Assembly (NCBI GenBank): GCA_041660305.1 | Contig: JBAZWO010000007.1 | Coordinates: 1 to 63,831, forward strand | From: Patescibacteria group bacterium | GTDB lineage: Bacteria > Patescibacteriota > Patescibacteriia > UBA9570 | Length of the DNA stretch: 63,831 nt | Reading direction: 5' to 3' | Shown here: one piece after another, positions 1-55,961 of the stretch | Numbering within the stretch: position 1 is the stretch's first letter | Layout of the letters: the number at the start of each line of letters is the position of its first letter | Notes under the pieces: model-generated | The model's database searches: none | The model's input: the letters and a program-made list of their open reading frames with translations, nothing else | Told to the model about the DNA's origin: nothing | Program-made: the position numbers and the translations under genes

Positions 1-37
1 ACGAAAGAAGCATACCATTACTGGTATGCTTTCATTA

Positions 38-137
38 TACGAACAGCGCGTATGCGCAATTGCTTTGCTTCGGTTGTGGTGATAAAATCATACCACAACC
101 TCGCGTCGCAACATGCGCCTACGCGCGAACGTTGTAC
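38..137 (+). repeat. attC-like site
   Basis: TATACGAAC-A-GCGCGTATGCGC, central hairpin GGTTGTGGTG/ACCACAACC, then GCGCCTACGCGCGAAC-GTTGTAC followed by GAAAT. Confidence 0.75.
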
Positions 138-178
138 GAAATATCCCCCCATTTATTAACTTTTTAATTCAATTTAAT

Positions 179-796
179 ATGACAACAACACAAAACATTC
201 CTTACATGCCGACTCCTGGATCTATTACAAAAATATTGGAAAAAATAAAACAGGCTGAAACACCTATTAATTTTAATCCGGATTTTCTCGGCACAAAACT
301 CGGTTTTAAAGGGGGTAATAATAGAATGTTTATATCATGGGCAAAAAAAACAGGACTTCTTAATAGTGATGGTACCCCCACCGCACTGTATAAACAATAC
401 AGGAACCCTCAGCATTCTGAAGCAAGCTTGGCCACAGCCCTCAAGAATGGATATTCTGAACTATATTCTAGGAATGAGTACTGCCATGAACTAGATAAAA
501 AAGGTTTCAAGGGGTTAGTAGTGGAGGCCACCGGGGAACCTGAAAACTCAGCAAAAGTAAAAATGATTGTCGCCACATTTTTCAACGCAAAATCTCTGGC
601 TAATTTTGATGCTAATCCAAATTTTGGTAAGCCTGAGGAAGAGGAAAAACCAACTGAGAAGCCTGCTGAAAAGAATACGCAGCAAGTAAAGCTCGGACTT
701 AACTATACTATTAACTTAACCTTGCCAAAAACTGATGACCCTGCAGTATACAATGCCATTTTTAAGTCTCTAAAAGACAATCTGCTACATGACTAA
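179..796 (+). CDS. DUF5343-like protein (first gene of a two-gene cassette)
   Basis: ORF track 113-796. The start was moved to ATG 179 because upstream codons read through the attC. The N-terminal pattern PYMPTPGSITKILEKIK...GLLNSDGTPTALYKQYRNP resembles my recollection of DUF5343. Confidence 0.6.
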   Translation: MTTTQNIPYMPTPGSITKILEKIKQAETPINFNPDFLGTKLGFKGGNNRMFISWAKKTGLLNSDGTPTALYKQYRNPQHSEASLATALKNGYSELYSRNEYCHELDKKGFKGLVVEATGEPENSAKVKMIVATFFNAKSLANFDANPNFGKPEEEEKPTEKPAEKNTQQVKLGLNYTINLTLPKTDDPAVYNAIFKSLKDNLLHD

Positions 797-1376
797 TATA
801 GATATCAATTCAAAAGTCAGGCTATTTACCCTAGCAAACTCTCTAACTGAAAAAGCGCTGGACCAACTAGAAGCAAATTTGGATTTAAATTTATGCCGTG
901 CAGAAGTAACTAAAACGGAAGAAAAAGATTACTATGCTCAGTTTGAAGCAAATTTTCGGAAAGAGGCACAAGCAATGGGTAAACATTATGAAGTTTTTTA
1001 TTGCCTAGAAAAATCCATAAGAAGCCTTATCATTGAACTTATGGTTGAAAAATTTAGTGCTAACTGGTGGAATGAAAAGGTAAGAGAAGACATCAAAAAA
1101 AATGTTAGTGACAATATGGCAAAAGATGCTGATTCTGGATATACACAAAGATCTGAAGAAAAAATTGACTACACCACCTTTGGTGAATTGAGTGAGATCG
1201 TTACTTCCAACTGGGAGGCGTTTGAGGATTTATTTAAAAGCAAAAGAGCATTTCAAAAAATAATGGCGAGTTTGAACCTTCTACGTGGTCCTATAGCTCA
1301 TTGTTGCCCACTTGCAGAAGATGAAATCGTCAGACTAGATATAACTGTTAAAGATTGGTTTCGTTTAATGGATTAA
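789..1376 (+). CDS. Swt1-like HEPN domain protein (putative RNase/toxin)
   Basis: Overlaps the upstream ORF by 8 nt. C-terminal LLRGPIAH fits the HEPN Rx4H motif. Confidence 0.6.
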   Translation: MTNIDINSKVRLFTLANSLTEKALDQLEANLDLNLCRAEVTKTEEKDYYAQFEANFRKEAQAMGKHYEVFYCLEKSIRSLIIELMVEKFSANWWNEKVREDIKKNVSDNMAKDADSGYTQRSEEKIDYTTFGELSEIVTSNWEAFEDLFKSKRAFQKIMASLNLLRGPIAHCCPLAEDEIVRLDITVKDWFRLMD

Positions 1377-1394
1377 TAAATGGGGGGATACATC

Positions 1395-1472
1395 GTACAA
1401 CAGCGTGTATGCGGTTCCGCTACGCTCCACCCATATTGCTAACGCAACATCGCATACACGCAAACGTTGTGC
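1395..1472 (+). repeat. attC-like site
   Basis: GTACAAC-A-GCGTGTATGCG ... CGCATACACGCAAAC-GTTGTGC followed by GAAAG. Confidence 0.7.
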
Positions 1473-1501
1473 GAAAGGCACGGCAATAAAAATAAGGAAA
1501 A

Positions 1502-1942
1502 ATGAAAAAAATTGTTAAAGTAGTTCTAAATTTTGGATTATTCACAAGTACAATATTTGGTATTTGGCATTTTTTTGTTCCTTATATTTATCATTGGTAT
1601 GATTACATTCCAAATGCGCCTCGAGAGATTATCGTATCTATTGATTGGATTAATTTCTTTTTTTCCTTATTTTTAGCTGGCAGTAGTTTTTTATTGATAA
1701 TACATCAACGGGAAATAGAATTGAAAAAAGGTATTTTTAGTTTTTTTATATTTCTTGTGTTTATTTGGTTTTCAAGAGTAATAATTACACTAGTTCATCC
1801 ATGGAATCAGCCGTATCAATTTATTGACATAATACAATTTATAATATTTTTGTTTGTATTTATTTTATTATTTATACCCTTAATGTATTACTTATTAAAT
1901 AAAAAACTTAAAGAGCCGTGCCAATCGCACAACAGCGCGTAA
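1502..1942 (+). CDS. Hypothetical multi-pass membrane protein (cassette ORF)
   Basis: ORF track. Several hydrophobic helices, no recognisable motif. Confidence 0.55.
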   Translation: MKKIVKVVLNFGLFTSTIFGIWHFFVPYIYHWYDYIPNAPREIIVSIDWINFFFSLFLAGSSFLLIIHQREIELKKGIFSFFIFLVFIWFSRVIITLVHPWNQPYQFIDIIQFIIFLFVFILLFIPLMYYLLNKKLKEPCQSHNSA

Positions 1943-2026
1943 GCGCAATTGCTCTGCTTCGATTGTGGTGATAAAATCATACCACAACCTTGCGTCGCAA
2001 CATGCGCCTACGCGCGAACGTTGTGC
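1927..2026 (+). repeat. attC-like site
   Basis: GCACAAC-A-GCGCGTAAGCGC, hairpin GATTGTGGTG/ACCACAACC, GCGCCTACGCGCGAAC-GTTGTGC. The 5' box overlaps the ORF stop, as is common for cassettes. Confidence 0.8.
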
Positions 2027-2050
2027 GTCATAATACTTCAAGAATACAAT

Positions 2051-2350
2051 ATGAAAATTATCAATAAACCGAGAAAGCTTGAGGAAAAATCTTTTATTAT
2101 GAGGTTGCAGAATGATTATACTCTCTACGTTGATTATGAATATACAAAAGATTCTAAAACTTTCTTTTTGGAATATAGAGTATTCCGAATCAAAGGAAAA
2201 GGTTATGTTTTAACAATTGGAGAAGGTGGGCATAAAGCAGATATTTTTCATGATTTTTGTACATTGAGAGATGAAAGATTTGAATTTCAATCAGTAGAAG
2301 AAGTCTTAAATTATCTCAAACAAAAAGAAAGTTTTAGAATACTCGATTAG
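2051..2350 (+). CDS. Hypothetical protein (cassette ORF)
   Basis: ORF track 1949-2350, trimmed to ATG 2051 (MKIINKPRKLEE) because the upstream part is attC sequence. Confidence 0.5.
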   Translation: MKIINKPRKLEEKSFIMRLQNDYTLYVDYEYTKDSKTFFLEYRVFRIKGKGYVLTIGEGGHKADIFHDFCTLRDERFEFQSVEEVLNYLKQKESFRILD

Positions 2351-2385
2351 GCCTATCACAAATAGAGTGCAATTCACATTACGGC

Positions 2386-2488
2386 GCACAACAGCGCGTA
2401 AGCGCAATTGCTCTGCATCGGTTGTGGTGTTATTCTAACTGTACCACAACACTCATTCACAACTGCCGCCTACGCGCGGACGTTAAGC
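2386..2488 (+). repeat. attC-like site
   Basis: GCACAAC-A-GCGCGTAAGCGC, hairpin GGTTGTGGTG...ACCACAAC, GCCGCCTACGCGCGGAC-GTTAAGC followed by GAAAT. Confidence 0.8.
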
Positions 2489-2512
2489 GAAATTGCGCGC
2501 ACAAAAGAAAGT

Positions 2513-3010
2513 ATGAAAAATATTCAGTTTAAAATATTTCCAATTATTGGCCTCATTCTCTATGTGCCTTTTCATGTATTAGAAGAGGCGCTGGGTAATT
2601 TCCCATTATGGATGCATCAGCATTATTACGGTTTACCGCAACCACTTTCTTATTCTCATTGGTTGATTAACAATGGAATTTTTTTGCTCGTGTTGTTGAT
2701 TGGTTTAACTTTTTATTTAAAAAATGAAAAGAAATATTTATATTTAGGTATTGGTATAATAGTGTGGTTATTCACAAATGCAATGGAACATATTGTTTTT
2801 TCCATAAAGGATGTTCAATTATCACCAGGATTTTTTACAGCAATACTATTTTTACTATTGGTCTTCTTTTCATTTTTTAAATTAAACGAGAATAAAGTTT
2901 TACAATGGCCAATAATTGGAAAAAGCATATTAGCCGGATTATCGTATTGGATAATTTCTTTTGTATTTATTATTTTAATTGGCAACACTTTAATAAAGAT
3001 TTTCCCCTAA
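2513..3010 (+). CDS. HXXEE-domain-like membrane protein (cassette ORF)
   Basis: ORF track 2408-3010 trimmed to ATG 2513. HVLEE motif and a second NAMEH motif within a multi-helix membrane protein. Confidence 0.5.
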   Translation: MKNIQFKIFPIIGLILYVPFHVLEEALGNFPLWMHQHYYGLPQPLSYSHWLINNGIFLLVLLIGLTFYLKNEKKYLYLGIGIIVWLFTNAMEHIVFSIKDVQLSPGFFTAILFLLLVFFSFFKLNENKVLQWPIIGKSILAGLSYWIISFVFIILIGNTLIKIFP

Positions 3011-3021
3011 GTGCGCGCAAC

Positions 3022-3179
3022 TTCAACCTAAAAATCGAATAAACAAGCCTGTTTTTGCGTGTGATCTGGAAAAGGATTCAAATCGAAAAATACCAACCCG
3101 GTTGCTTTTTGGCTTAGTTGTGGTATTTTTAAGGTATTAAGTGTTTTCTAACGCAACGGTAGTGGCGCGGACGTTGTGC
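3022..3179 (+). repeat. Long atypical attC-like element, copy 1 (contains IS-end homology)
   Basis: About 90 percent identical to 5057-5209. Bases 3029-3072 are the reverse complement of 62899-62942, the 3' end of the IS4-like fragment. It ends GGCGCGGAC-GTTGTGC followed by GAAAT. Confidence 0.5.
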
Positions 3180-3204
3180 GAAATAATTAAATTTTTTTAA
3201 TACG

Positions 3205-3405
3205 ATGAAAAAATTATTCTATATATCGCTGGCTATTTTCTTGATAGTGATTTTTATTTATTTTTTTATTAAATTGATACTTTCTGGTTATTTTTCTGGT
3301 AAGATTCCCTCCGACCCAAATGTTTGTAATAATTTAAAACCTGATGAATATTGTGTCTGCGAAAAATATCAACCTCCAATTTGTCATGTTGAAAAAAATA
3401 AATAA
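3205..3405 (+). CDS. Small membrane-anchored Cys-containing peptide (cassette ORF)
   Basis: ORF track. N-terminal hydrophobic helix and four Cys in the C-terminal half. Confidence 0.4.
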   Translation: MKKLFYISLAIFLIVIFIYFFIKLILSGYFSGKIPSDPNVCNNLKPDEYCVCEKYQPPICHVEKNK

Positions 3406-3416
3406 AGAAAGAAAAT

Positions 3417-3503
3417 TTTCTCAACCCAAATTTTTGCCATTTTCTTCTTTTAGAATATAATAAGGAAGTGGGCAAAAACATCGCGTACGCGCGGACGTTA
3501 TAT
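3417..3503 (+). repeat. Degenerate attC-like site
   Basis: TTCTCAAC box, hairpin TTTTTGCC/GGCAAAAA, CGCGTACGCGCGGAC-GTTATAT. The left arm pairs poorly. Confidence 0.4.
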
Positions 3504-3538
3504 GCCATTGTGCCGATTTTAATTCTTAATCTAAAAAT

Positions 3539-4075
3539 ATGAAAATCATCATCACTTTATTGAGTTTAGGCCTGTTATTAACAGGCTGTACAAATAATAA
3601 TTCGGGGCAAACTCAAAATAACACCAACGAACAAGTTCCAGAACAATCTGTCTTGGAAACACAAGAAGTCCAATCAACTAATGAAGCTCAAAATATTGAA
3701 GGAGATCTTTATTATATTAAAAATGTCTCCACAAAAGACGGCAAAACTTCTATTGAAATCGACAAAATTGAATGGCTAAGTTTTACCGACAATACATGTA
3801 GCACACCACCAGAAATAAAACCTGACATGCCACAATGCAATCCCAACGGATTTTTAATTAAAAATAGCAGTCCAGATTTAAAAACCTACGAAGTTTTGCC
3901 ATCAGCAAGCCTACGAATAATAGACCCCGTCAAAAATCCAGCTAATAAAAAAATAAGTCTACAAGAATTCGGTGAATATTTTACTTCACAAAAAGAATAT
4001 TTTGAGTTTGCCCCTTTCGTCATTCAAATAGAAAACAGCGTTGTCATAGCAATACAAGAAAAGTATATCCCATAA
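3539..4075 (+). CDS. Putative lipoprotein
   Basis: Signal peptide with lipobox LLTGC, followed by a Q/N/E-rich linker. Confidence 0.6.
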   Translation: MKIIITLLSLGLLLTGCTNNNSGQTQNNTNEQVPEQSVLETQEVQSTNEAQNIEGDLYYIKNVSTKDGKTSIEIDKIEWLSFTDNTCSTPPEIKPDMPQCNPNGFLIKNSSPDLKTYEVLPSASLRIIDPVKNPANKKISLQEFGEYFTSQKEYFEFAPFVIQIENSVVIAIQEKYIP

Positions 4076-4168
4076 AACCAGCCCAGCGGGTAGCCGGTTC
4101 GCTAACTAAATAAAATATTTTTATGAATTACCAATAAACAAATATGTACATCGTCATTTTAATAATAA

Positions 4169-4212
4169 CTTAGAACCTGCGTGAAAAACCATATTTTCAC
4201 GCAGGTTCTAAG
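4169..4212. repeat. Perfect 19-bp inverted repeat (hairpin)
   Basis: CTTAGAACCTGCGTGAAAA, 6-nt loop, TTTTCACGCAGGTTCTAAG. Confidence 0.8.
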
Positions 4213-4247
4213 TAATATATACACCTCTTATTTAGTAAAGAATCAAT

Positions 4248-4550
4248 ATGAAAACAAAAAAAATAGAAATCGCTACGGGCGTAGTTCATGAAGTGCCTAA
4301 TGATTTAAAGACGGTTTTAAGCTCCAATTCAGAGTTGCTTGCCAAATGGAATAGCCTAACACCTCTATCTCGTAATGAGTGGATTTGTTGGGTCACTATT
4401 GTGAAAAAGTCAGAAACACGTAAAGAACATATTGAACGTTTATCTGAAGAGCTCCTAGCAGGGGAAAAAAGGCCTTGTTGTTGGCCTGGTTGCCCTCATC
4501 GCAGAGAAAGTGCTAAAAAGTGGTTTAAAACTTTTAAAGCGGAAAAATAA
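4248..4550 (+). CDS. YdeI/OmpD-associated family-like protein
   Basis: LTPLSRNEWICWV...KKSETRKEHIERL pattern, recalled from the YdeI/OmdA family. Confidence 0.5.
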   Translation: MKTKKIEIATGVVHEVPNDLKTVLSSNSELLAKWNSLTPLSRNEWICWVTIVKKSETRKEHIERLSEELLAGEKRPCCWPGCPHRRESAKKWFKTFKAEK

Positions 4551-4582
4551 TTATGAAAAAAAATCAAATTTTCTTAGTAATA

Positions 4583-4622
4583 AAATAACGGCGCAACTAC
4601 TGCCTACGCGCGAGCGTTATGT
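4583..4622 (+). repeat. Short attC-like site
   Basis: AAATAAC-GGCGC...GCGCGAGC-GTTATGT. An imperfect palindrome, but shorter than typical attC sites. Confidence 0.35.
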
Positions 4623-4648
4623 AAAATTTTATTCGTAATTTAAATACC

Positions 4649-5053
4649 ATGCTAACAAGAAAAAATACCTACTACCTTTTTTCATCTCTGGATCTGATTA
4701 CCTTCATTATTAACTTCAACTTACTGGTTCGATTGGTAGCCGGCCTACCTAAAGATTATAACAATAATACTATCTTTTTTTTGCTTACTATTCTACATGT
4801 TTTATTTTTGCTATCACTACTACTAACTACATACCTGCACTTTAAAAAACAGAAAAAAGCATTACTCCTATATTATCCGCAATTAGTATTGCGTGCTCTT
4901 TTTTTTACTTGGAGTTTTGGATTTATCTTTTTAATAGAAGCATTATTTTTCGCTGCAACTTTGCACTATATACTAATTGCTATCATGATCGTTGCCGAGC
5001 TTGCTAGATTGACCATGAATATCAAGACACAAAGAGAGATGAAAAAAGAATAA
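4649..5053 (+). CDS. Hypothetical membrane protein (cassette ORF)
   Basis: ORF track. Four hydrophobic helices. Confidence 0.5.
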   Translation: MLTRKNTYYLFSSLDLITFIINFNLLVRLVAGLPKDYNNNTIFFLLTILHVLFLLSLLLTTYLHFKKQKKALLLYYPQLVLRALFFTWSFGFIFLIEALFFAATLHYILIAIMIVAELARLTMNIKTQREMKKE

Positions 5054-5056
5054 TCT

Positions 5057-5209
5057 TTCAACAATCGAATAAACAAGCCTGTTTTTGCATGTGCTCTGGA
5101 AAATGATTCAAATCGAAAAATACCAACCAGCTTGCTTTTTGGCTTAGTTGTGGTATTTTTAAGGTATTAAGTGTTTTCTAACGCAACGGTAGTGGCGCGG
5201 ACATTCAAC
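5057..5209 (+). repeat. Long atypical attC-like element, copy 2
   Basis: Homologous to 3022-3179. Its 3' box is ATTCAAC instead of GTTGTGC, repeating the TTCAAC at its own 5' end. Confidence 0.5.
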
Positions 5210-5296
5210 GAAATAGTGAGAAAATCTCTTTATAAAAACATTAATAATTTTGAAATACATTTTTGGCTCGGCTCTTATTATTAAAATTTAATTACT

Positions 5297-5626
5297 ATGC
5301 TACAAAAAATACCAAAAGAATTATTAAGTTCAGAGTATCGAATAGAGATGTGGAAAAACTCACAGAAAATTATCAAGAAGCTTGAAAAAGTTCTGCCGAT
5401 TTCTTCTGCTTATTTATTGGGTAGCTTCACCACTGAAAAAAAGAGACCGGCTGATGTTGATTTTATAATTTTGCTTCAGATGAAAGATAAATCGAAATTT
5501 AATTGGTCAGTTGATTTTGTGGTTGCACCAACTGGAGAACATGGAGAATTTATTTTGGAAGATGCTAAAAAGTGGATGAAGCAAAAATATGGAACGAAGA
5601 AATCGGCAGTAATTAAATTAAAGTAG
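5297..5626 (+). CDS. Minimal nucleotidyltransferase (MNT-like) domain protein
   Basis: GSFTTEKKRPADVDFIIL fits the GS...D.D nucleotidyltransferase motif. Confidence 0.55.
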   Translation: MLQKIPKELLSSEYRIEMWKNSQKIIKKLEKVLPISSAYLLGSFTTEKKRPADVDFIILLQMKDKSKFNWSVDFVVAPTGEHGEFILEDAKKWMKQKYGTKKSAVIKLK

Positions 5627-5645
5627 GAGGCGCCGAGCCGAACAT

Positions 5646-5743
5646 CACACAACACGGAGTAAACGGTTCAAAAATTTTGCGTAGTTATATTTATAGGTAT
5701 ACAAAATTTCCTAACCCAAATTCGTTTACTCCGATACGTTAGG
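5646..5743 (+). repeat. attC-like site (last in the plus-strand array)
   Basis: ACACAAC-AC-GGAGTAAACG ... CGTTTACTCCGATAC-GTTAGGC followed by GAAAT. Confidence 0.75.
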
Positions 5744-5899
5744 CGAAATAAATTTTTTATCTTGGTGGTAATTTTAGGGTTTTGGTGATATAAATAAAGA
5801 CAGAAAATTTGATTTTTAATTTATTTAAAGAGGGGCAAAAAGGTGTTTTTCTGCTCCTGGAATCGTAGAAAAAAAGAATTTATTTATAAGAATATTTAT

Positions 5900-6883
5900 A
5901 TGACAAATATAATCAAAGATTTCAAGCCATTCGTAGGTCAACATTGCGAAACCACTGCAACAGGCTCTCTTCTTAATCAGATTGGGATTGAATTTTCCGA
6001 ACCAATGCTTTTTGGCTTGGGAGAAGGACTGGGTTTTATTTTCTGGAATATGAAGATTATGGGTTTTCCATTTATTGGTGGAAGAATAAAACCGGATGCT
6101 TTGACGCAAAATATTGCACGAAATTTAAACTTGAAATTAGATGTCCAAGAAACATCATCGACAAAAAAAGCCTGGGAAAATGTCAAAAGTAATATTGATA
6201 AAAATATTGCCGTTGGACTCAAGCTCGATTGTTATCATTTGGATTACTTTACAATCAAAATTCATTTTGCGGGTCATTATGTAGCTATGTATGGATATGA
6301 TGATAATTTTGCATATTTGGTTGATACAAAACAGCAAGGAAAAGTAAAAACATCATTGAAAAATCTTGAATTAGCAAGAAATGAAAAAGGGCCAATGTCT
6401 TCAAGAAATTTAAGTTATACAATTCAAGATGTGAAAAAGGGCTATGACCTAAAAAAAGCTATAATTATTGCCATTAAAAACAATGCTAAGGATTATCTGA
6501 ATCCGCCAATCAAGAATATCGGGTACAAAGGCGTGTTGAAGGCAAGCGAGGAAATTAAAAAATGGTTTAAAAACAGCAAGGATATTCAAGGAGATTTTGA
6601 AACCACTGCCATGTTGATGGAAAAGGGTGGAACAGGTGGGGCGCTTTTTAGAAACCTCTACAGAGATTTTTTGAAAGAAAGTTATAATTTTTTAAAAATA
6701 GAAAAATTAAATGAAGCTCACCAGATGTTTATTGAAATAGCAATTTTGTGGACAAAAGTTGCAATTTTATTTAAAAAAACAGCAGAAACCAAAAATATTG
6801 AACATATTAATCAGGCCTCCGAAATTTTGATTGCTTTATCCAAAAAAGAAAAAATAGCCATGGAGTTGTTATTGGAAATATAG
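5900..6883 (+). CDS. BtrH_N/DUF4872-like (papain-fold) protein
   Basis: ORF track 5843-6883 (GTG), with ATG 5900 preferred. FVGQHCETTATGSLL near the N-terminus, as in BtrH N-terminal domain proteins. Confidence 0.55.
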   Translation: MTNIIKDFKPFVGQHCETTATGSLLNQIGIEFSEPMLFGLGEGLGFIFWNMKIMGFPFIGGRIKPDALTQNIARNLNLKLDVQETSSTKKAWENVKSNIDKNIAVGLKLDCYHLDYFTIKIHFAGHYVAMYGYDDNFAYLVDTKQQGKVKTSLKNLELARNEKGPMSSRNLSYTIQDVKKGYDLKKAIIIAIKNNAKDYLNPPIKNIGYKGVLKASEEIKKWFKNSKDIQGDFETTAMLMEKGGTGGALFRNLYRDFLKESYNFLKIEKLNEAHQMFIEIAILWTKVAILFKKTAETKNIEHINQASEILIALSKKEKIAMELLLEI

Positions 6884-6895
6884 TAAAATAAGCCT

Positions 6896-7123
6896 ATGTC
6901 AAAAAATAAAACTATCAATGTAAAAGGAACAAAAATCACAATCATAAAGCAGGGTAATTCTGACTATGATTATATTTCCCTGACTGACATGCTCAAGGCG
7001 AAAGATGGTGATTTTTTTATTTCTGATTGGTTGAGAAATAGAAATACGGTTGAATTTTTGGGTATTTGGGAAAAAATTTATAATCCAAATTTTAATTATG
7101 GCGAATTTGCCGTAATTAAATAA
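6896..7123 (+). pseudogene. KilA-N domain protein, N-terminal fragment
   Basis: ISLTDM...DWLRNRNTVEFLGIWEKIYNPNFN matches the KilA-N pattern. The ORF stops after 75 aa, whereas the family members I recall are several-fold longer. Confidence 0.5.
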
Positions 7124-8380: not shown

Positions 8381-9307
8381 ATGTCAAACAAAGTAACCAT
8401 CATCGGCGCTGGCAATGTCGGCTCGGCCACGGCTTTTACACTAGCTTTATCAGGCACGGCCGAAGAAATTGTTTTGCTGGATACTAATTTAGCCAAAGCG
8501 CAAGGAGAAGTAATGGATATTGAACACGGCAGTTCTTTTTTGCCCCATGTGCAATTAACTGCCACCAAGTCTTTTATTGATATCAAACAATCTAATGTGG
8601 TAATTATAACGGCTGGAGCCAAGCAAACGCCCGGCGAAACCAGACTAGATTTACTCAAACATAATGCCGCCGTTACAAAAGACGTGGTTTTAAACATCAA
8701 GCGCTACGCGCCTAATTGCGTAATTTTAGTAGTGGTAAATCCAGTAGATATATTAACTTATTTGGCTTATAAGTATTCTAGCTTTCCAAAACAACGCGTG
8801 TTTGGTTCTGGCACGGTATTAGATACCGCCCGCTTTCGTAGTTATTTAGCCAAACATTTTAATATTAACTCTCATAATGTGCACGCTTATATTATGGGTG
8901 AACATGGCGACAGTTCGTTCCCTATGCTAAGCACCGCCGATATTGGCTCTATTCCTCTTACTAAATTCCCTGGTTACAGCCAAACCATGATTAAACGCTT
9001 ACACCAAAAGGTAGTAAAAGCTGCTTATAATATCATTCAAAAGAAAGGCTACACTAATCATGCTATTGCTATTTGTGTTAATCAGTTAGTGCATGCCATT
9101 CTTAACGACACTCGTGAAATTTTCTGTGTCTCTTCCGTGCAGCAAGGAACGTATCACTTGAAAAACATTGCTCTTAGTACACCAGCAATACTTGGTAAAA
9201 ATGGCATAGAGCAAGAACTGATCTTGCCGCTAAATCGTAGCGAACAAGCTACTCTGCAAAAATCGGCCAAAATTCTTAAAAAAGCACTGGCGTTGATCAA
9301 AAATTAA
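8381..9307 (+). CDS. ldh: L-lactate dehydrogenase
   Basis: GAGNVGS Rossmann motif. AGAKQTPGETRLDL has Gln at the LDH/MDH discriminating position. GEHGDS motif. Confidence 0.85.
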   Translation: MSNKVTIIGAGNVGSATAFTLALSGTAEEIVLLDTNLAKAQGEVMDIEHGSSFLPHVQLTATKSFIDIKQSNVVIITAGAKQTPGETRLDLLKHNAAVTKDVVLNIKRYAPNCVILVVVNPVDILTYLAYKYSSFPKQRVFGSGTVLDTARFRSYLAKHFNINSHNVHAYIMGEHGDSSFPMLSTADIGSIPLTKFPGYSQTMIKRLHQKVVKAAYNIIQKKGYTNHAIAICVNQLVHAILNDTREIFCVSSVQQGTYHLKNIALSTPAILGKNGIEQELILPLNRSEQATLQKSAKILKKALALIKN

Positions 9308-54024: not shown

Positions 54025-55317
54025 ATGTACGATTACGACGTAATAATTCTTGGCGGCGGACCAGCCGGCTGTGCTTGTGCAATTGAGTTGGCTAAACAGC
54101 AAAAAAAAGTGGCCATTGTAGAGCAACAAGCCATTGGTGGCACGTGCTTAAATCATGGCTGTATACCAACTAAATCATATTTATATACCGTTGAGTTGCT
54201 CAACAACATAAAAAAAGCGCAACGTTTTGGGCTAAAAATAGCTGAACCGGAAATTATTTGGGAAGATATTAAAAAGAAAAAAGACTTAAATGTGAAAGTA
54301 TTGGGTTTGGGCTTAAAAAATACTTTACAGCAGGCCGGAGTAACCATTATAAATGGCTTTGGTAAATTAGTAGATGATCATATTGTTGAGGTATCTGATA
54401 AAAAGTTATCAGCTGAATACATGGTACTGGCCACTGGCACTAAACCATTATTTATACCAGGCATTATACCTGGCGAACATGTAATTTCTAGCACCGAAAT
54501 TTTAAATTTAGATAAAATTCCGGCCAGCTTAACCATTATTGGCGGCGGTGTTATAGGCGTAGAAATAGCCTCAGTATTTTGTGCTTTAGGCACGCCAGTA
54601 ACCATTATTGAAAAAGCCGCCGCTTTGTTAGGTAATATGGATCAGCAAATCAGCGAGCAATTAAAAAATATATTGCAAAAAAAAGGCTGTAAAATCCTAC
54701 TAAATACTACAGTAGCTTCTTGCACCGATAAAAATAATCAAGCTGAAATAATTTATGATAATGATAAAGTATTAAGCACAGATAAAGCCTTGGTGGTAAT
54801 TGGCAGAAAAGCTAACACAGATTTAAAGGTAGTGAATAACAATTTACAAACTAATAAGCCCAATATTTATATCATCGGCGATGCGGCTGGCAAAACCTTA
54901 ACTGCTTATGGCGGTGAAAAAGAAGGTGAGTGCGTAGCTAAACATATTATTAATCAGCAAGATATGAATATTGATTACGCTAACATGCCGATTACGGTTT
55001 TTTCTCAGCCGGAAGTGGCCGCAGTTGGTTTAACCGAAGCTCAGGCTATAAAATTAGGGTTGAATATTGTAGTAAAAACCAGCACTTATGCCGCTAATGC
55101 TAAAGCCATGATTATGGGAGAGCGGGAAGGTCTGGTGAAAATCATTGTTGAACAAACTAATCAAAAAATATTAGGGGTACATATTATTGGCAGCCAAGCC
55201 GTAGATTTAATTCATCAAGCTATCATACCGGTCACAAAAGGCATGACCATTGCTGACTGGAAAGAAGTTACCTGGTCGCATCCGGTCTTATCAGAAGTTA
55301 TTAAAGCGGCTTTATAA
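54025..55317 (+). CDS. lpdA: Dihydrolipoyl dehydrogenase (short form)
   Basis: GGGPAG FAD motif. GGTCLNHGCIPTK redox disulfide. C-terminal HP.L.E motif. Confidence 0.88.
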   Translation: MYDYDVIILGGGPAGCACAIELAKQQKKVAIVEQQAIGGTCLNHGCIPTKSYLYTVELLNNIKKAQRFGLKIAEPEIIWEDIKKKKDLNVKVLGLGLKNTLQQAGVTIINGFGKLVDDHIVEVSDKKLSAEYMVLATGTKPLFIPGIIPGEHVISSTEILNLDKIPASLTIIGGGVIGVEIASVFCALGTPVTIIEKAAALLGNMDQQISEQLKNILQKKGCKILLNTTVASCTDKNNQAEIIYDNDKVLSTDKALVVIGRKANTDLKVVNNNLQTNKPNIYIIGDAAGKTLTAYGGEKEGECVAKHIINQQDMNIDYANMPITVFSQPEVAAVGLTEAQAIKLGLNIVVKTSTYAANAKAMIMGEREGLVKIIVEQTNQKILGVHIIGSQAVDLIHQAIIPVTKGMTIADWKEVTWSHPVLSEVIKAAL

Positions 55318-55725
55318 AACCAGTTTTTTTGTAACAAGTTTTAAACCAAAACCTTGATATTGTTTTATCTTCTGGTCTCGACTCATAAAATAATAATTAT
55401 TACAAATGGCCTGCCAGCACAGCATACGATCAAATGGATCGGTATTTAGTGAAGGTGATAATTTATGAAAATCAACAGCTTCATTAGGGGATATGGTAAT
55501 AATAGTGTAATTACTGGTATTAACATCATTCAATAAAGACGGTAAATCCAACTCATGAAGGGCAAGTTTTCCTAATGAATATTTTAGAGATATTTCCCAT
55601 AAACTAACTACGCTGACAAAAATATTTATATGTGGAGACAGCAACAATGTTTGTTCGTATGGTCGTAATTTTTTTGTATTAGCTAACGACCAAATCAAAA
55701 TATGAGTGTCTAGTAAAATATTCAT
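55312..55725 (-). CDS. vapC: PIN-domain toxin (VapC-like)
   Basis: MNILLDTHILIW N-terminal acidic motif. Overlaps the antitoxin gene by 4 nt. Confidence 0.8.
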   Translation of the reverse strand: MNILLDTHILIWSLANTKKLRPYEQTLLLSPHINIFVSVVSLWEISLKYSLGKLALHELDLPSLLNDVNTSNYTIITISPNEAVDFHKLSPSLNTDPFDRMLCWQAICNNYYFMSRDQKIKQYQGFGLKLVTKKLVL

Positions 55726-55961
55726 GAGCGCAAAAATTCTTCATCGGTCATTTTAAAATTTTTCTTTATGATAATTTTAGCACCACGTTGCTCCGATACG
55801 CCAAGTTTTTTTTGACGCACCACATAGCGTTCAATTGGTACAATTACCGCCACAGGCTCCTTTTTTTTACCAAAAGAAATACCACAGTCCTCACCTTGGC
55901 GTACTTTGGTGAGCACTTCCGAAAAATGAGTTTTTAAATTTCCTACGGTTAGTGTTTGCAT
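55722..55961 (-). CDS. Phd/YefM-type antitoxin
   Basis: LKTHFSEVLTKVRQGE...PVAVIVPIERY pattern. Confidence 0.75.
   Translation of the reverse strand: MQTLTVGNLKTHFSEVLTKVRQGEDCGISFGKKKEPVAVIVPIERYVVRQKKLGVSEQRGAKIIIKKNFKMTDEEFLRS

Follow-up and report, generated by a model that had tools for sequence, protein, structure and literature searches.

The 63,831-nucleotide contig JBAZWO010000007.1 of a Patescibacteria group bacterium (assembly GCA_041660305.1), which was analysed over its entire 63.8 kb and is hereafter called the window, carries small gene cassettes at both of its ends. On the plus strand of the left end (1-5744), eight cassettes with their open reading frames (ORFs) follow each other, each ending in an intact or damaged site that resembles the attC recombination sites of integrons, i.e., two outer boxes (R'' and R') which enclose two complementary arms (L'' and L') and a variable loop. 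On the minus strand of the right end (63831-62951), a second array consists of a first site (attC b0), a cassette with a DUF6714 gene, and a second site (attC b1). The evidence described below makes it very probable that the window holds two inward-pointing, chromosomal cassette arrays of integron type, belonging to a Kerfeldbacteria-like bacterium of the candidate phyla radiation (CPR). The features of both arrays are listed in Table 1.

The backbone of about 57 kb between the arrays is that of an ordinary small-genome chromosome, with genes for IF-2, PBP1, H+-PPase, trigger factor, LDH and tRNAs. The IF-2 of this host shows 63-65% identity with proteins of Candidatus Kerfeldbacteria, and the best GTDB match of LDH is from a Patescibacteria metagenome-assembled genome (MAG), in agreement with the CPR-type host proposed in an earlier description of this DNA made from the sequence alone (the original prediction). 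A scan of the whole window at the Rfam gathering thresholds returned only four tRNAs and no attC match. In the closest GTDB relative by LDH (L129, 62% identity), no attC-like sites were found in the 10 kb upstream.

Table 1. Features of the two arrays and their borders. R1, covariance model described in the text; z, bottom-strand fold compared with shuffled sequences; crossover positions are inferred.
Feature	Coordinates	Strand	R1 (bits)	Fold z	Crossover	Content
attC a0	37-137	+	91.1	-4.7	G131|T132	
cassette 1	132-1466	+				Overlapping genes DUF5343 (179-796) and HEPN_Swt1 (789-1376), Pfam
attC a1	1395-1472	+	66.7	-4.8	G1466|T1467	
cassette 2	1467-2020	+				Membrane-like 146-aa ORF (1502-1942), stop codon within attC
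attC a2	1927-2026	+	100.8	-5.5	G2020|T2021	
cassette 3	2021-2482	+				99-aa ORF (2051-2350), without family match
attC a3	2386-2488	+	90.5	-3.3	G2482|T2483	R' GTTAAGC
cassette 4	2483-3173	+				HXXEE membrane protein (2513-3010), Pfam; attC disrupted by D1
cassette 5	3174-3497	+				66-aa Cys-rich protein with hydrophobic N-terminus (3205-3405); degenerate attC (3417-3503)
cassette 6	3498-4616	+				Lipoprotein-like ORF (3539-4075); OmdA/YdeI ORF (4248-4550); 40-nt truncated attC (4583-4622)
cassette 7	4617-5203	+				134-aa membrane ORF (4649-5053), then second D1 copy (5060-5215)
cassette 8	5204-5738	+				DUF6932/minimal nucleotidyltransferase-like ORF (5297-5626), Pfam
attC a8 (last left site)	5647-5744	+	63.8	-3.6	G5738|T5739	R' GTTAGGC
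truncated IS4-family element	62560-62956	+				DDE_Tnp_1 C-terminal fragment (translation, Pfam); abuts UDG gene (61875-62537)
attC b1	63066-62957	-	24.6	-6.7		
right-array cassette	62957-63622	-				DUF6714 protein (63633/63597-63085), Pfam; own attC b1
attC b0	63617-63720	-	89.2	-6.2	G63623|T63622	R' GTTATAT
segment X (upstream of right array)	63721-63831	-				Identical to the left extension in contig L003, to L235 and to L238

Detection of the sites and their disrupted copies

The sites were searched with a covariance model, R1, trained on 13 sites, of which six come from the window and seven from a pair of contigs of Kerfeldbacteria. Five full sites of the left array scored between 64 and 101 bits, within 1-2 nt of the positions at which the original prediction had placed sites of one shared architecture. 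For two weaker sites that it had also proposed, only the 3' halves scored (14.7 bits at 3473-3503 for the site at 3417-3503, and 14.1 bits at 4583-4622). As it had further stated, the sites lie behind ORFs, and the next ORF starts 25-82 nt past the 3' box. The minus-strand array of the right end, two disrupted sites and a hairpin at 4165-4216 had been overlooked. With R1, no site was detected in the backbone (5745-62950) and, with the filters off, no further site beyond the last left attC up to position 9000.

The common 5' and 3' boxes were also recovered by the repeat families D2, D3, D4 and D7. The direct repeats comprise the common 5' box with the arm ACAACAGCGYGTA... and the 3' arm with its box, ...CGCCTACGCGCGRACGTTRRRY GAAAT. 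Eight copies of the 3' motif CGCGNRCGTTRNRY are present in place of the 2.6 expected, a number that none of 100 shuffles reached. A scan which ignores the arm sequence (AAC, 1 nt, a 10-nt arm, its complement, 4 nt, GTT) found six sites compared to 0.53 expected (maximum of four in 100 dinucleotide shuffles), all of them with the same 1/4 spacing. Beyond the window, a scan of genome contigs with GCCTACGCGCGRRCGTT matched only random high-GC genomes, with one match each; a gapped two-box pattern revealed the same attC family in two contigs of Candidatus Kerfeldbacteria (L127 and L128), the first of which carries eight co-oriented sites, one behind each ORF or ORF group.

Within the left array, the arm sequence of attC a8 is unlike that of the other sites, with the same geometry, and the sites of cassettes 4 to 7 are damaged. 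In the attC regions of cassettes 4 and 7 (3011-3179 and 5054-5215), the place of the 5' half is occupied by D1, a 156-nt repeat found at 3030-3185 and 5060-5215 in copies that are 94% identical, and only the L'-R' end is left (3165-3179 in cassette 4). R1 gave 12 bits in cassette 4 (3090-3179), with a fold z-score of -0.57, and 11.1 bits in cassette 7 (5115-5209), where the R' box is mutated to ATTCAAC. D1 derives from the end of an IS4-family insertion sequence (IS; compare 62898-62956), its 5' part being inverted subterminal sequence, and in each copy the outermost 15 nt of the left end are missing. D1 was also considered as a long attC in its own right and was rejected, since it folds no better than shuffled sequences, scores only 11-12 bits with R1 and has an IS4-derived 5' part.

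The degenerate site of cassette 5 reached a fold z-score of -1.7. Cassette 6 probably represents two fused cassettes. Between its lipoprotein-like and OmdA genes lies the perfect 23-bp hairpin 4165-4216 (flanks ATAAC and GTAAT; R1 15.3 bits at 4170-4211), which may be either a symmetrised attC relic marking the fusion or simply a terminator. Just outside the last left attC, at 5900-7123, we observed a BtrH_N/DUF4872 gene and a 75-aa KilA-N fragment. In the metagenome contig L237, a BtrH_N/DUF4872 gene 34% identical to the window copy is a true cassette, and the window gene may be a former cassette that has lost its attC.

At the right end, the terminus CACTACCGTTGCGTT of the truncated IS4-family element is joined exactly at the G of the R' box of attC b1, and the same junction recurs at a different attC in L237 (1-124). 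Both junctions would fit a target duplication of 9 bp (GCGCGRACG), and so an attC-targeted insertion of the IS4 family. IS4 elements are not known to join at a fixed attC position.

Fold of the sites and the crossover rule

The structure of the sites was analysed in the 13 training sites and in an independent set of 57 sites from 32 other CPR loci. The bottom strands share a fold made of an R helix (AAC/GTT), a one-sided bulge of 3 nt, an L helix of 10-13 bp and a variable top, and intact sites gave fold z-scores of -3.3 to -6.9. The L helix was 93.8% paired in the training sites, with compensatory changes in seven of ten pairs, and 95.8% paired in the independent sites, with such changes in nine of ten. 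The covariation score of the 57 sites was 0.508 compared to 0.153 for shuffles, none of which (0/500) scored as high. The bottom strand was more stable than the top strand in 62 out of 73 sites, by a mean of 2.6 kcal/mol (p = 3.6e-11), a polarity that is also known from integrons.

AAC and GTT are invariant in the training sites. In the independent set, all 57 sites have AAC and the TT of GTT, and 54 of them also have the G. The flanks follow RYAT and ATRY, the consensus of the 57 sites being RYAT-AAC-A-[NNGNNTATNN]...[NNATANNCNN]-RAAC-GTT-ATRY. The sites are 52-195 nt long with a variable loop. The 5' spacer is always a single A and the 3' spacer (RAAC) has 4 nt in 46 of the 57 sites. The R-L spacer forms a one-sided bulge of 3-4 nt, in contrast to the two-sided unpaired region of canonical attC sites.

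A further helix was found outside the boxes. A stretch of 30 nt that follows R' (GAAATA and then 10-16 variable nt) pairs with the 30 nt ahead of the cassette's own R'' (variable sequence and then TACATC), and the mean duplex energy in 25 cassettes was -12.0 kcal/mol compared to -5.8 kcal/mol for the control flank (p = 8e-5). The arms of this outer helix covary between cassettes. In the window, it is seen at 138-159/1373-1394 in cassette 1, within a 29-nt inverted repeat (131-159 with 1373-1401), at 1473-1490/1905-1926 in cassette 2 (-14.1 kcal/mol) and at 63616-63590/63095-63067 in the right-array cassette (-15.1 kcal/mol). The outer helix spans the crossover and is possible only in an excised circle or by looping-out of the cassette.

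As a side observation on site structure, the arms GGGTTCAAAAATTTTCAC and GTGAAAATTTTTGAACCCC at L128 4303-4890 (equivalent to 8116-8553 of contig L240) flank a 145-aa DpnI-like gene located between the L'' and L' halves. This appears to be a single attC split by a nested ORF.

If the crossover takes place between the G and the TT of R', the four bases after GTT should pair with the R'' of the next cassette. This was the case at 13 of 14 junctions of the window, L127 and L128, and a match with the site's own R'' was found in 2 of 16 (Fisher p = 2e-5). Accordingly, cassette 1 starts with TTGTAC and has the R'' box GTACAAC, and the right-array cassette starts with TTATAT and has ATATAAC. In the other CPR loci, the next-cassette match was observed in 14/28 junctions and the own-site match in 4/61 (p = 7e-6); most exceptions to the rule span gaps longer than 1.2 kb, in which further sites probably went undetected. 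The Kerfeldbacteria contig L127 and the metagenome contig L237 share a methyltransferase cassette at 99.8-100% identity, with different neighbours in each. Its homology runs from ACG|TT of the upstream R' to exactly the G of its own R', boundaries which indicate that the cassette moved as a unit at G|TT.

With the boxes, the covarying L stem, the stability of the bottom strand, the location at ORF ends in two arrays and the next-cassette rule all holding, the attC identity proposed in the original prediction is borne out. That the sites are instead extragenic palindromes of the repetitive (REP) or interspersed mosaic (BIME) type, or transcription terminators, is hardly credible. They do share with such elements the form of GC-rich imperfect palindromes at gene 3' ends in an AT-rich genome. 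Nevertheless, none occur in the 57 kb of backbone despite its many gene ends, their strand orientation is strict, and no T-run follows the 3' boxes. Furthermore, neither the next-cassette rule nor exact cassette-sized homology between arrays would be expected of such elements. The sites are also exclusively linked to a recombinase gene, as described in the next section. REP/BIME-like behaviour, which the original prediction had named as counter-evidence, was not observed in the window.

A recombinase family and its attI in related CPR genomes

A complete platform of this type was found in L128, which was independently assembled within the 390-kb chromosomal contig L240 (the locus is represented by L128, L155 and L240). 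It comprises a gene for a 270-aa tyrosine recombinase (P0001), a GTTGTAC box 62 nt upstream of it and, on the opposite strand, three cassettes that all obey the rule. P0001 has the Pfam domains Phage_integrase and a SAM-like N-terminal domain, and its best PDB match is VchIntIA (2A3V), with residues 13-206 aligned to 12-210 and 197-271 to 242-316. More than 6,000 homologues were retrieved at E < 1e-30. The family is unusually conserved: among the homologues listed, the best 120 show 81-88% identity to P0001 (100% in four of them), come from many CPR lineages and are all 259-281 aa long; the source databases name the homologues XerD or generic integrase. In one Roizmanbacteria MAG there are two paralogues, whose identity to P0001 is 83% and 57% (the loci noted are L171 and L226). 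A few recombinase loci are labelled as MAGs of other groups (Altiarchaeales, Gammaproteobacteria, Bdellovibrionales), labels that may reflect mis-binning or mislabelling.

The linkage between recombinase and sites was determined over 1.03 Mb, searched on both strands, from 80 GTDB loci that contain the gene. All 61 R1 matches lay upstream of the gene on the divergent strand, and none in 607 kb downstream. Likewise, a structure-only scan gave 40 matches in this upstream, divergent compartment and three in the other three compartments combined. Of the 45 loci whose upstream sequence spans 1.5 kb or more, 34 had an array by one or the other scan. In 26 of the 80 loci the contig ends less than 500 nt upstream of the gene, as would be expected beside a repetitive or variable array.

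For attI, a 7-mer was predicted, made of GTT and the complement of the distal R'' bases of the first attC. This 7-mer was present in 22 of 33 loci and, in 18 of them, it lies 76-148 nt from the gene start within the motif ATARAAACSA|GTTnnnn, a conserved attI. These sites follow the same G|TT rule as the attC sites. We consider the P0001 family, its recombinase activity being predicted, the probable cognate integrase, with somewhat less confidence than we place in the cassettes themselves.

Several observations weigh against reading the arrays as integrons. R1 was trained on the same site family that it detects, and the alignments of its matches lean towards its own structure. Four of the nine left-array sites are either degenerate (two) or disrupted by D1 (two). 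As the original prediction had noted, no integrase is in view: tblastn of the window with IntI1 and with P0001 gave nothing better than E = 0.026. The CPR attI motif was not found in the window either, and both absences count against our inference that the arrays of this genome are still active. In 11 of the 45 recombinase loci with 1.5 kb or more upstream, neither scan gave an array. The best NCBIfam match of P0001, the integron integrase model TIGR02249, is split in two and reaches 226 bits, below the cut-off of 265 bits. P0001 lacks about 30-40 residues, corresponding roughly to 211-241 of the 2A3V chain, which form the IntI-specific additional domain (I2) near patch III; in the alignment with IntI1, most of the 53 gap positions fall opposite residues 194-250 or so. 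Finally, the 10-bp L helix has no bulge in 56 of 57 sites, i.e., the conserved extrahelical bases that the original prediction expected on the bottom strand are absent. The asymmetric spacing that it described (A versus GAAC) is present; it replaces the canonical extrahelical bases and does not occur alongside them. In canonical attC sites, the R''-L'' arm has two or three such bases, with a G conserved in L'' and a T at a distance of 6-8 nt from it, in addition to the two-sided unpaired spacer (PMC2727003), and extrahelical bases are described in the attC literature as common to all known attC sites. The I2 domain serves to define integron integrases. It is considered necessary for IntI activity (PMC9668308) and, in the literature (PMC7790495; PMC9668308), its acquisition is treated as the innovation that enabled recombination of folded, single-stranded attC.

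With both the extrahelical bases and the IntI-specific domain missing, "integron-like" is the right wording for these arrays. In the 2A3V structure, residues of the I2 region are said to read the extrahelical bases; if so, the joint absence of both would be coherent.

The recombinase could also be an Xer-type enzyme for chromosome dimers that uses dif-like sites in double-stranded DNA, in the manner of the pdif modules known from Acinetobacter plasmids, an explanation to which we assign a small probability. P0001 is indeed Xer-sized without I2, its score against archaeal XerA (213 bits) is near that against IntI (226 bits), and XerD is its name in the source databases. Yet the L arms are conserved as pairing and not as sequence, with nine of ten pairs compensatory, which argues for recognition of a folded structure, and the bottom strand is systematically the more stable one. 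The sites, at 52-195 nt with variable loops, are not 28-bp dif-like cores, and a G|TT crossover in AAC/GTT boxes together with an attI adjoining the gene are features of integrons.

In the integron-type mechanism that we propose instead, a cassette would consist of TTRRRY, GAAATA, the first outer arm, one or more ORFs, the complementary arm, TACATC, RYYYAAC, A, L'', the variable loop, L', RAAC and G. The substrate would be single-stranded, with the bottom strand being chosen: a tyrosine recombinase would recognise its fold through the R-box helix, the asymmetric spacer of 1 versus 4 nt and the L helix of 10-12 bp, and would exchange strands at G|TT. Cassettes would be excised as circles and inserted at the attI adjoining the recombinase gene. 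For the present arrays this gene would lie outside the window, and the conserved 270-aa IntI-like enzyme without I2 of related CPR genomes would be its counterpart. On balance, and with a modest degree of confidence, we favour the broader view that CPR bacteria widely carry a distinct class of integrons, characterised by a 270-aa integrase (57-88% identical across many CPR lineages) in which I2 either never existed or was lost, attC sites without extrahelical bases, a polarity set by the spacer, and an outer helix.

State of the arrays and comparison with known systems

Both ends of the contig terminate within the same repeated segment, X. On the left, X ends at position 37 (plus strand), and an inverted copy lies at 63756-63720; positions 1-144 match the reverse complement of 63756-63610, with the first 37 nt identical. 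X contains the hairpin AAGCATACC...GGTATGCTT. Contigs retrieved by exact-protein look-ups extend the window by only 85-90 nt, which are still segment X, and a look-up with an alternative start codon found no contig. In a metagenome scan, X was preceded not by intI but by a transposase of the IS110 family. The leftward search for intI and attI suggested in the original prediction has thus led to X and this transposase instead. The transposase gene (DEDD_Tnp_IS110 and Transposase_20) lies at 44-1006 of contig L238 (JGI Ga0172379_10226762), directly to the left of window position 1. As at least three different attC contexts were found downstream of X and the IS110 transposase upstream, we conclude that the contig ends in a multicopy repeat. 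We also observed that the 57-kb chromosomal segment is bracketed by inverted arrays, each preceded by X, and might be invertible.

A less favourable explanation, to which we give a minor share of probability, is that the arrays are relics, i.e., clusters of attC sites lacking an integrase nearby (CALINs) in a genome without cognate integrase, whose cassettes were once mobile and are now fixed while IS110 and IS4 elements erode them. It would account for a 63.8-kb contig with neither recombinase nor attI, for the two degenerate and the two D1-disrupted sites, for the IS4 remnant joined to attC b1 and for the IS110 element upstream of X. However, five left sites and attC b0 are intact and score like sites adjacent to an integrase gene. 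Recent exchange is suggested by attC b0, which is 94% identical (blastn) to an attC of the Kerfeldbacteria contig L127, and by the methyltransferase cassette that L127 shares with a contig whose metagenome of origin also contains the right-array cassette of the window. Moreover, the absence of an integrase from this contig is to be expected, because assemblies often break just upstream of the gene, as in the 26 of 80 loci mentioned above.

With regard to cargo, the gene pair of cassette 1 matches components A and B of the PADLOC candidate defence system PDC-M34 (3e-46 and 1.6e-40, respectively). Elsewhere, two type II toxin-antitoxin pairs lie in the backbone, at 55312-55961 and 57196-57747. 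One combines PIN with Phd/YefM and the other RelB with a YafQ/ParE-like toxin, and neither has attC sites at its flanks.

No description of CPR integrons or of integron integrases without I2 was found in the literature searched, and the IntegronFinder 2.0 survey does not mention CPR. An integron architecture with neither I2 nor extrahelical bases would contradict the prevailing view of I2 or reveal a second route. If the enzyme does recombine folded attC sites, I2 would be dispensable for integron-type recombination and the CPR system would represent a surviving intermediate between Xer and IntI, or else a simplification that arose independently. The small recombinase and its short sites would form a tractable pair for the choice of strand and site without I2, and streamlined, symbiotic CPR genomes would keep a dedicated platform for gene capture whose cargo is of defence and toxin type. 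Such platforms are probably either listed only as CALINs by current integron finders or missed by them.

The arrays can be compared with several known systems. Like Xer/dif and the XerC/D-dependent pdif modules, the CPR system has a short Xer-like recombinase without I2 and genes bracketed by its sites. The CPR sites differ from 28-bp dif-like cores in being long, structured palindromes whose arms covary, and they come with a dedicated attI. Elements of the IS1111-attC group, within the IS110 family, target attC sites. The IS110-family transposase directly upstream of X, with X in front of three attC contexts, is reminiscent of this group. Under the CALIN definition (two or more attC sites and no integrase close by), the window counts as such a cluster, with five strong sites on the left and two on the right; it differs in that the missing integrase is probably an effect of an assembly ending in a repeat. 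Complete CPR integrons would probably also be labelled CALIN by IntegronFinder, whose integrase criterion would miss an enzyme without I2. The integrons of archaea are likewise known from MAGs of deep, mostly uncultivated lineages, as complete platforms with putative attI; they are reported to retain the additional domain and attC sites that fold like those of bacteria (PMC9668308), in both of which the CPR system differs.

The closest resemblance is to sedentary chromosomal integrons such as the Vibrio cholerae superintegron with its VCR sites (Vibrio cholerae repeats). Common to both are chromosomal, co-oriented cassettes with one or two small ORFs, RYYYAAC/GTTRRRY boxes, L''/L' arms around a variable loop, a crossover at G|TT, cargo of toxin or defence type (here HEPN, nucleotidyltransferase and the PDC-M34 pair) next to genes of unknown function, and, as seen in related CPR genomes, a divergent integrase gene with attI. 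Unlike them, the system described here belongs to a CPR host, has an integrase family without I2, and uses attC sites without extrahelical bases in the L stem, with a spacer of 1 versus 4 nt where canonical sites have an unpaired central spacer, and with an extra outer helix.

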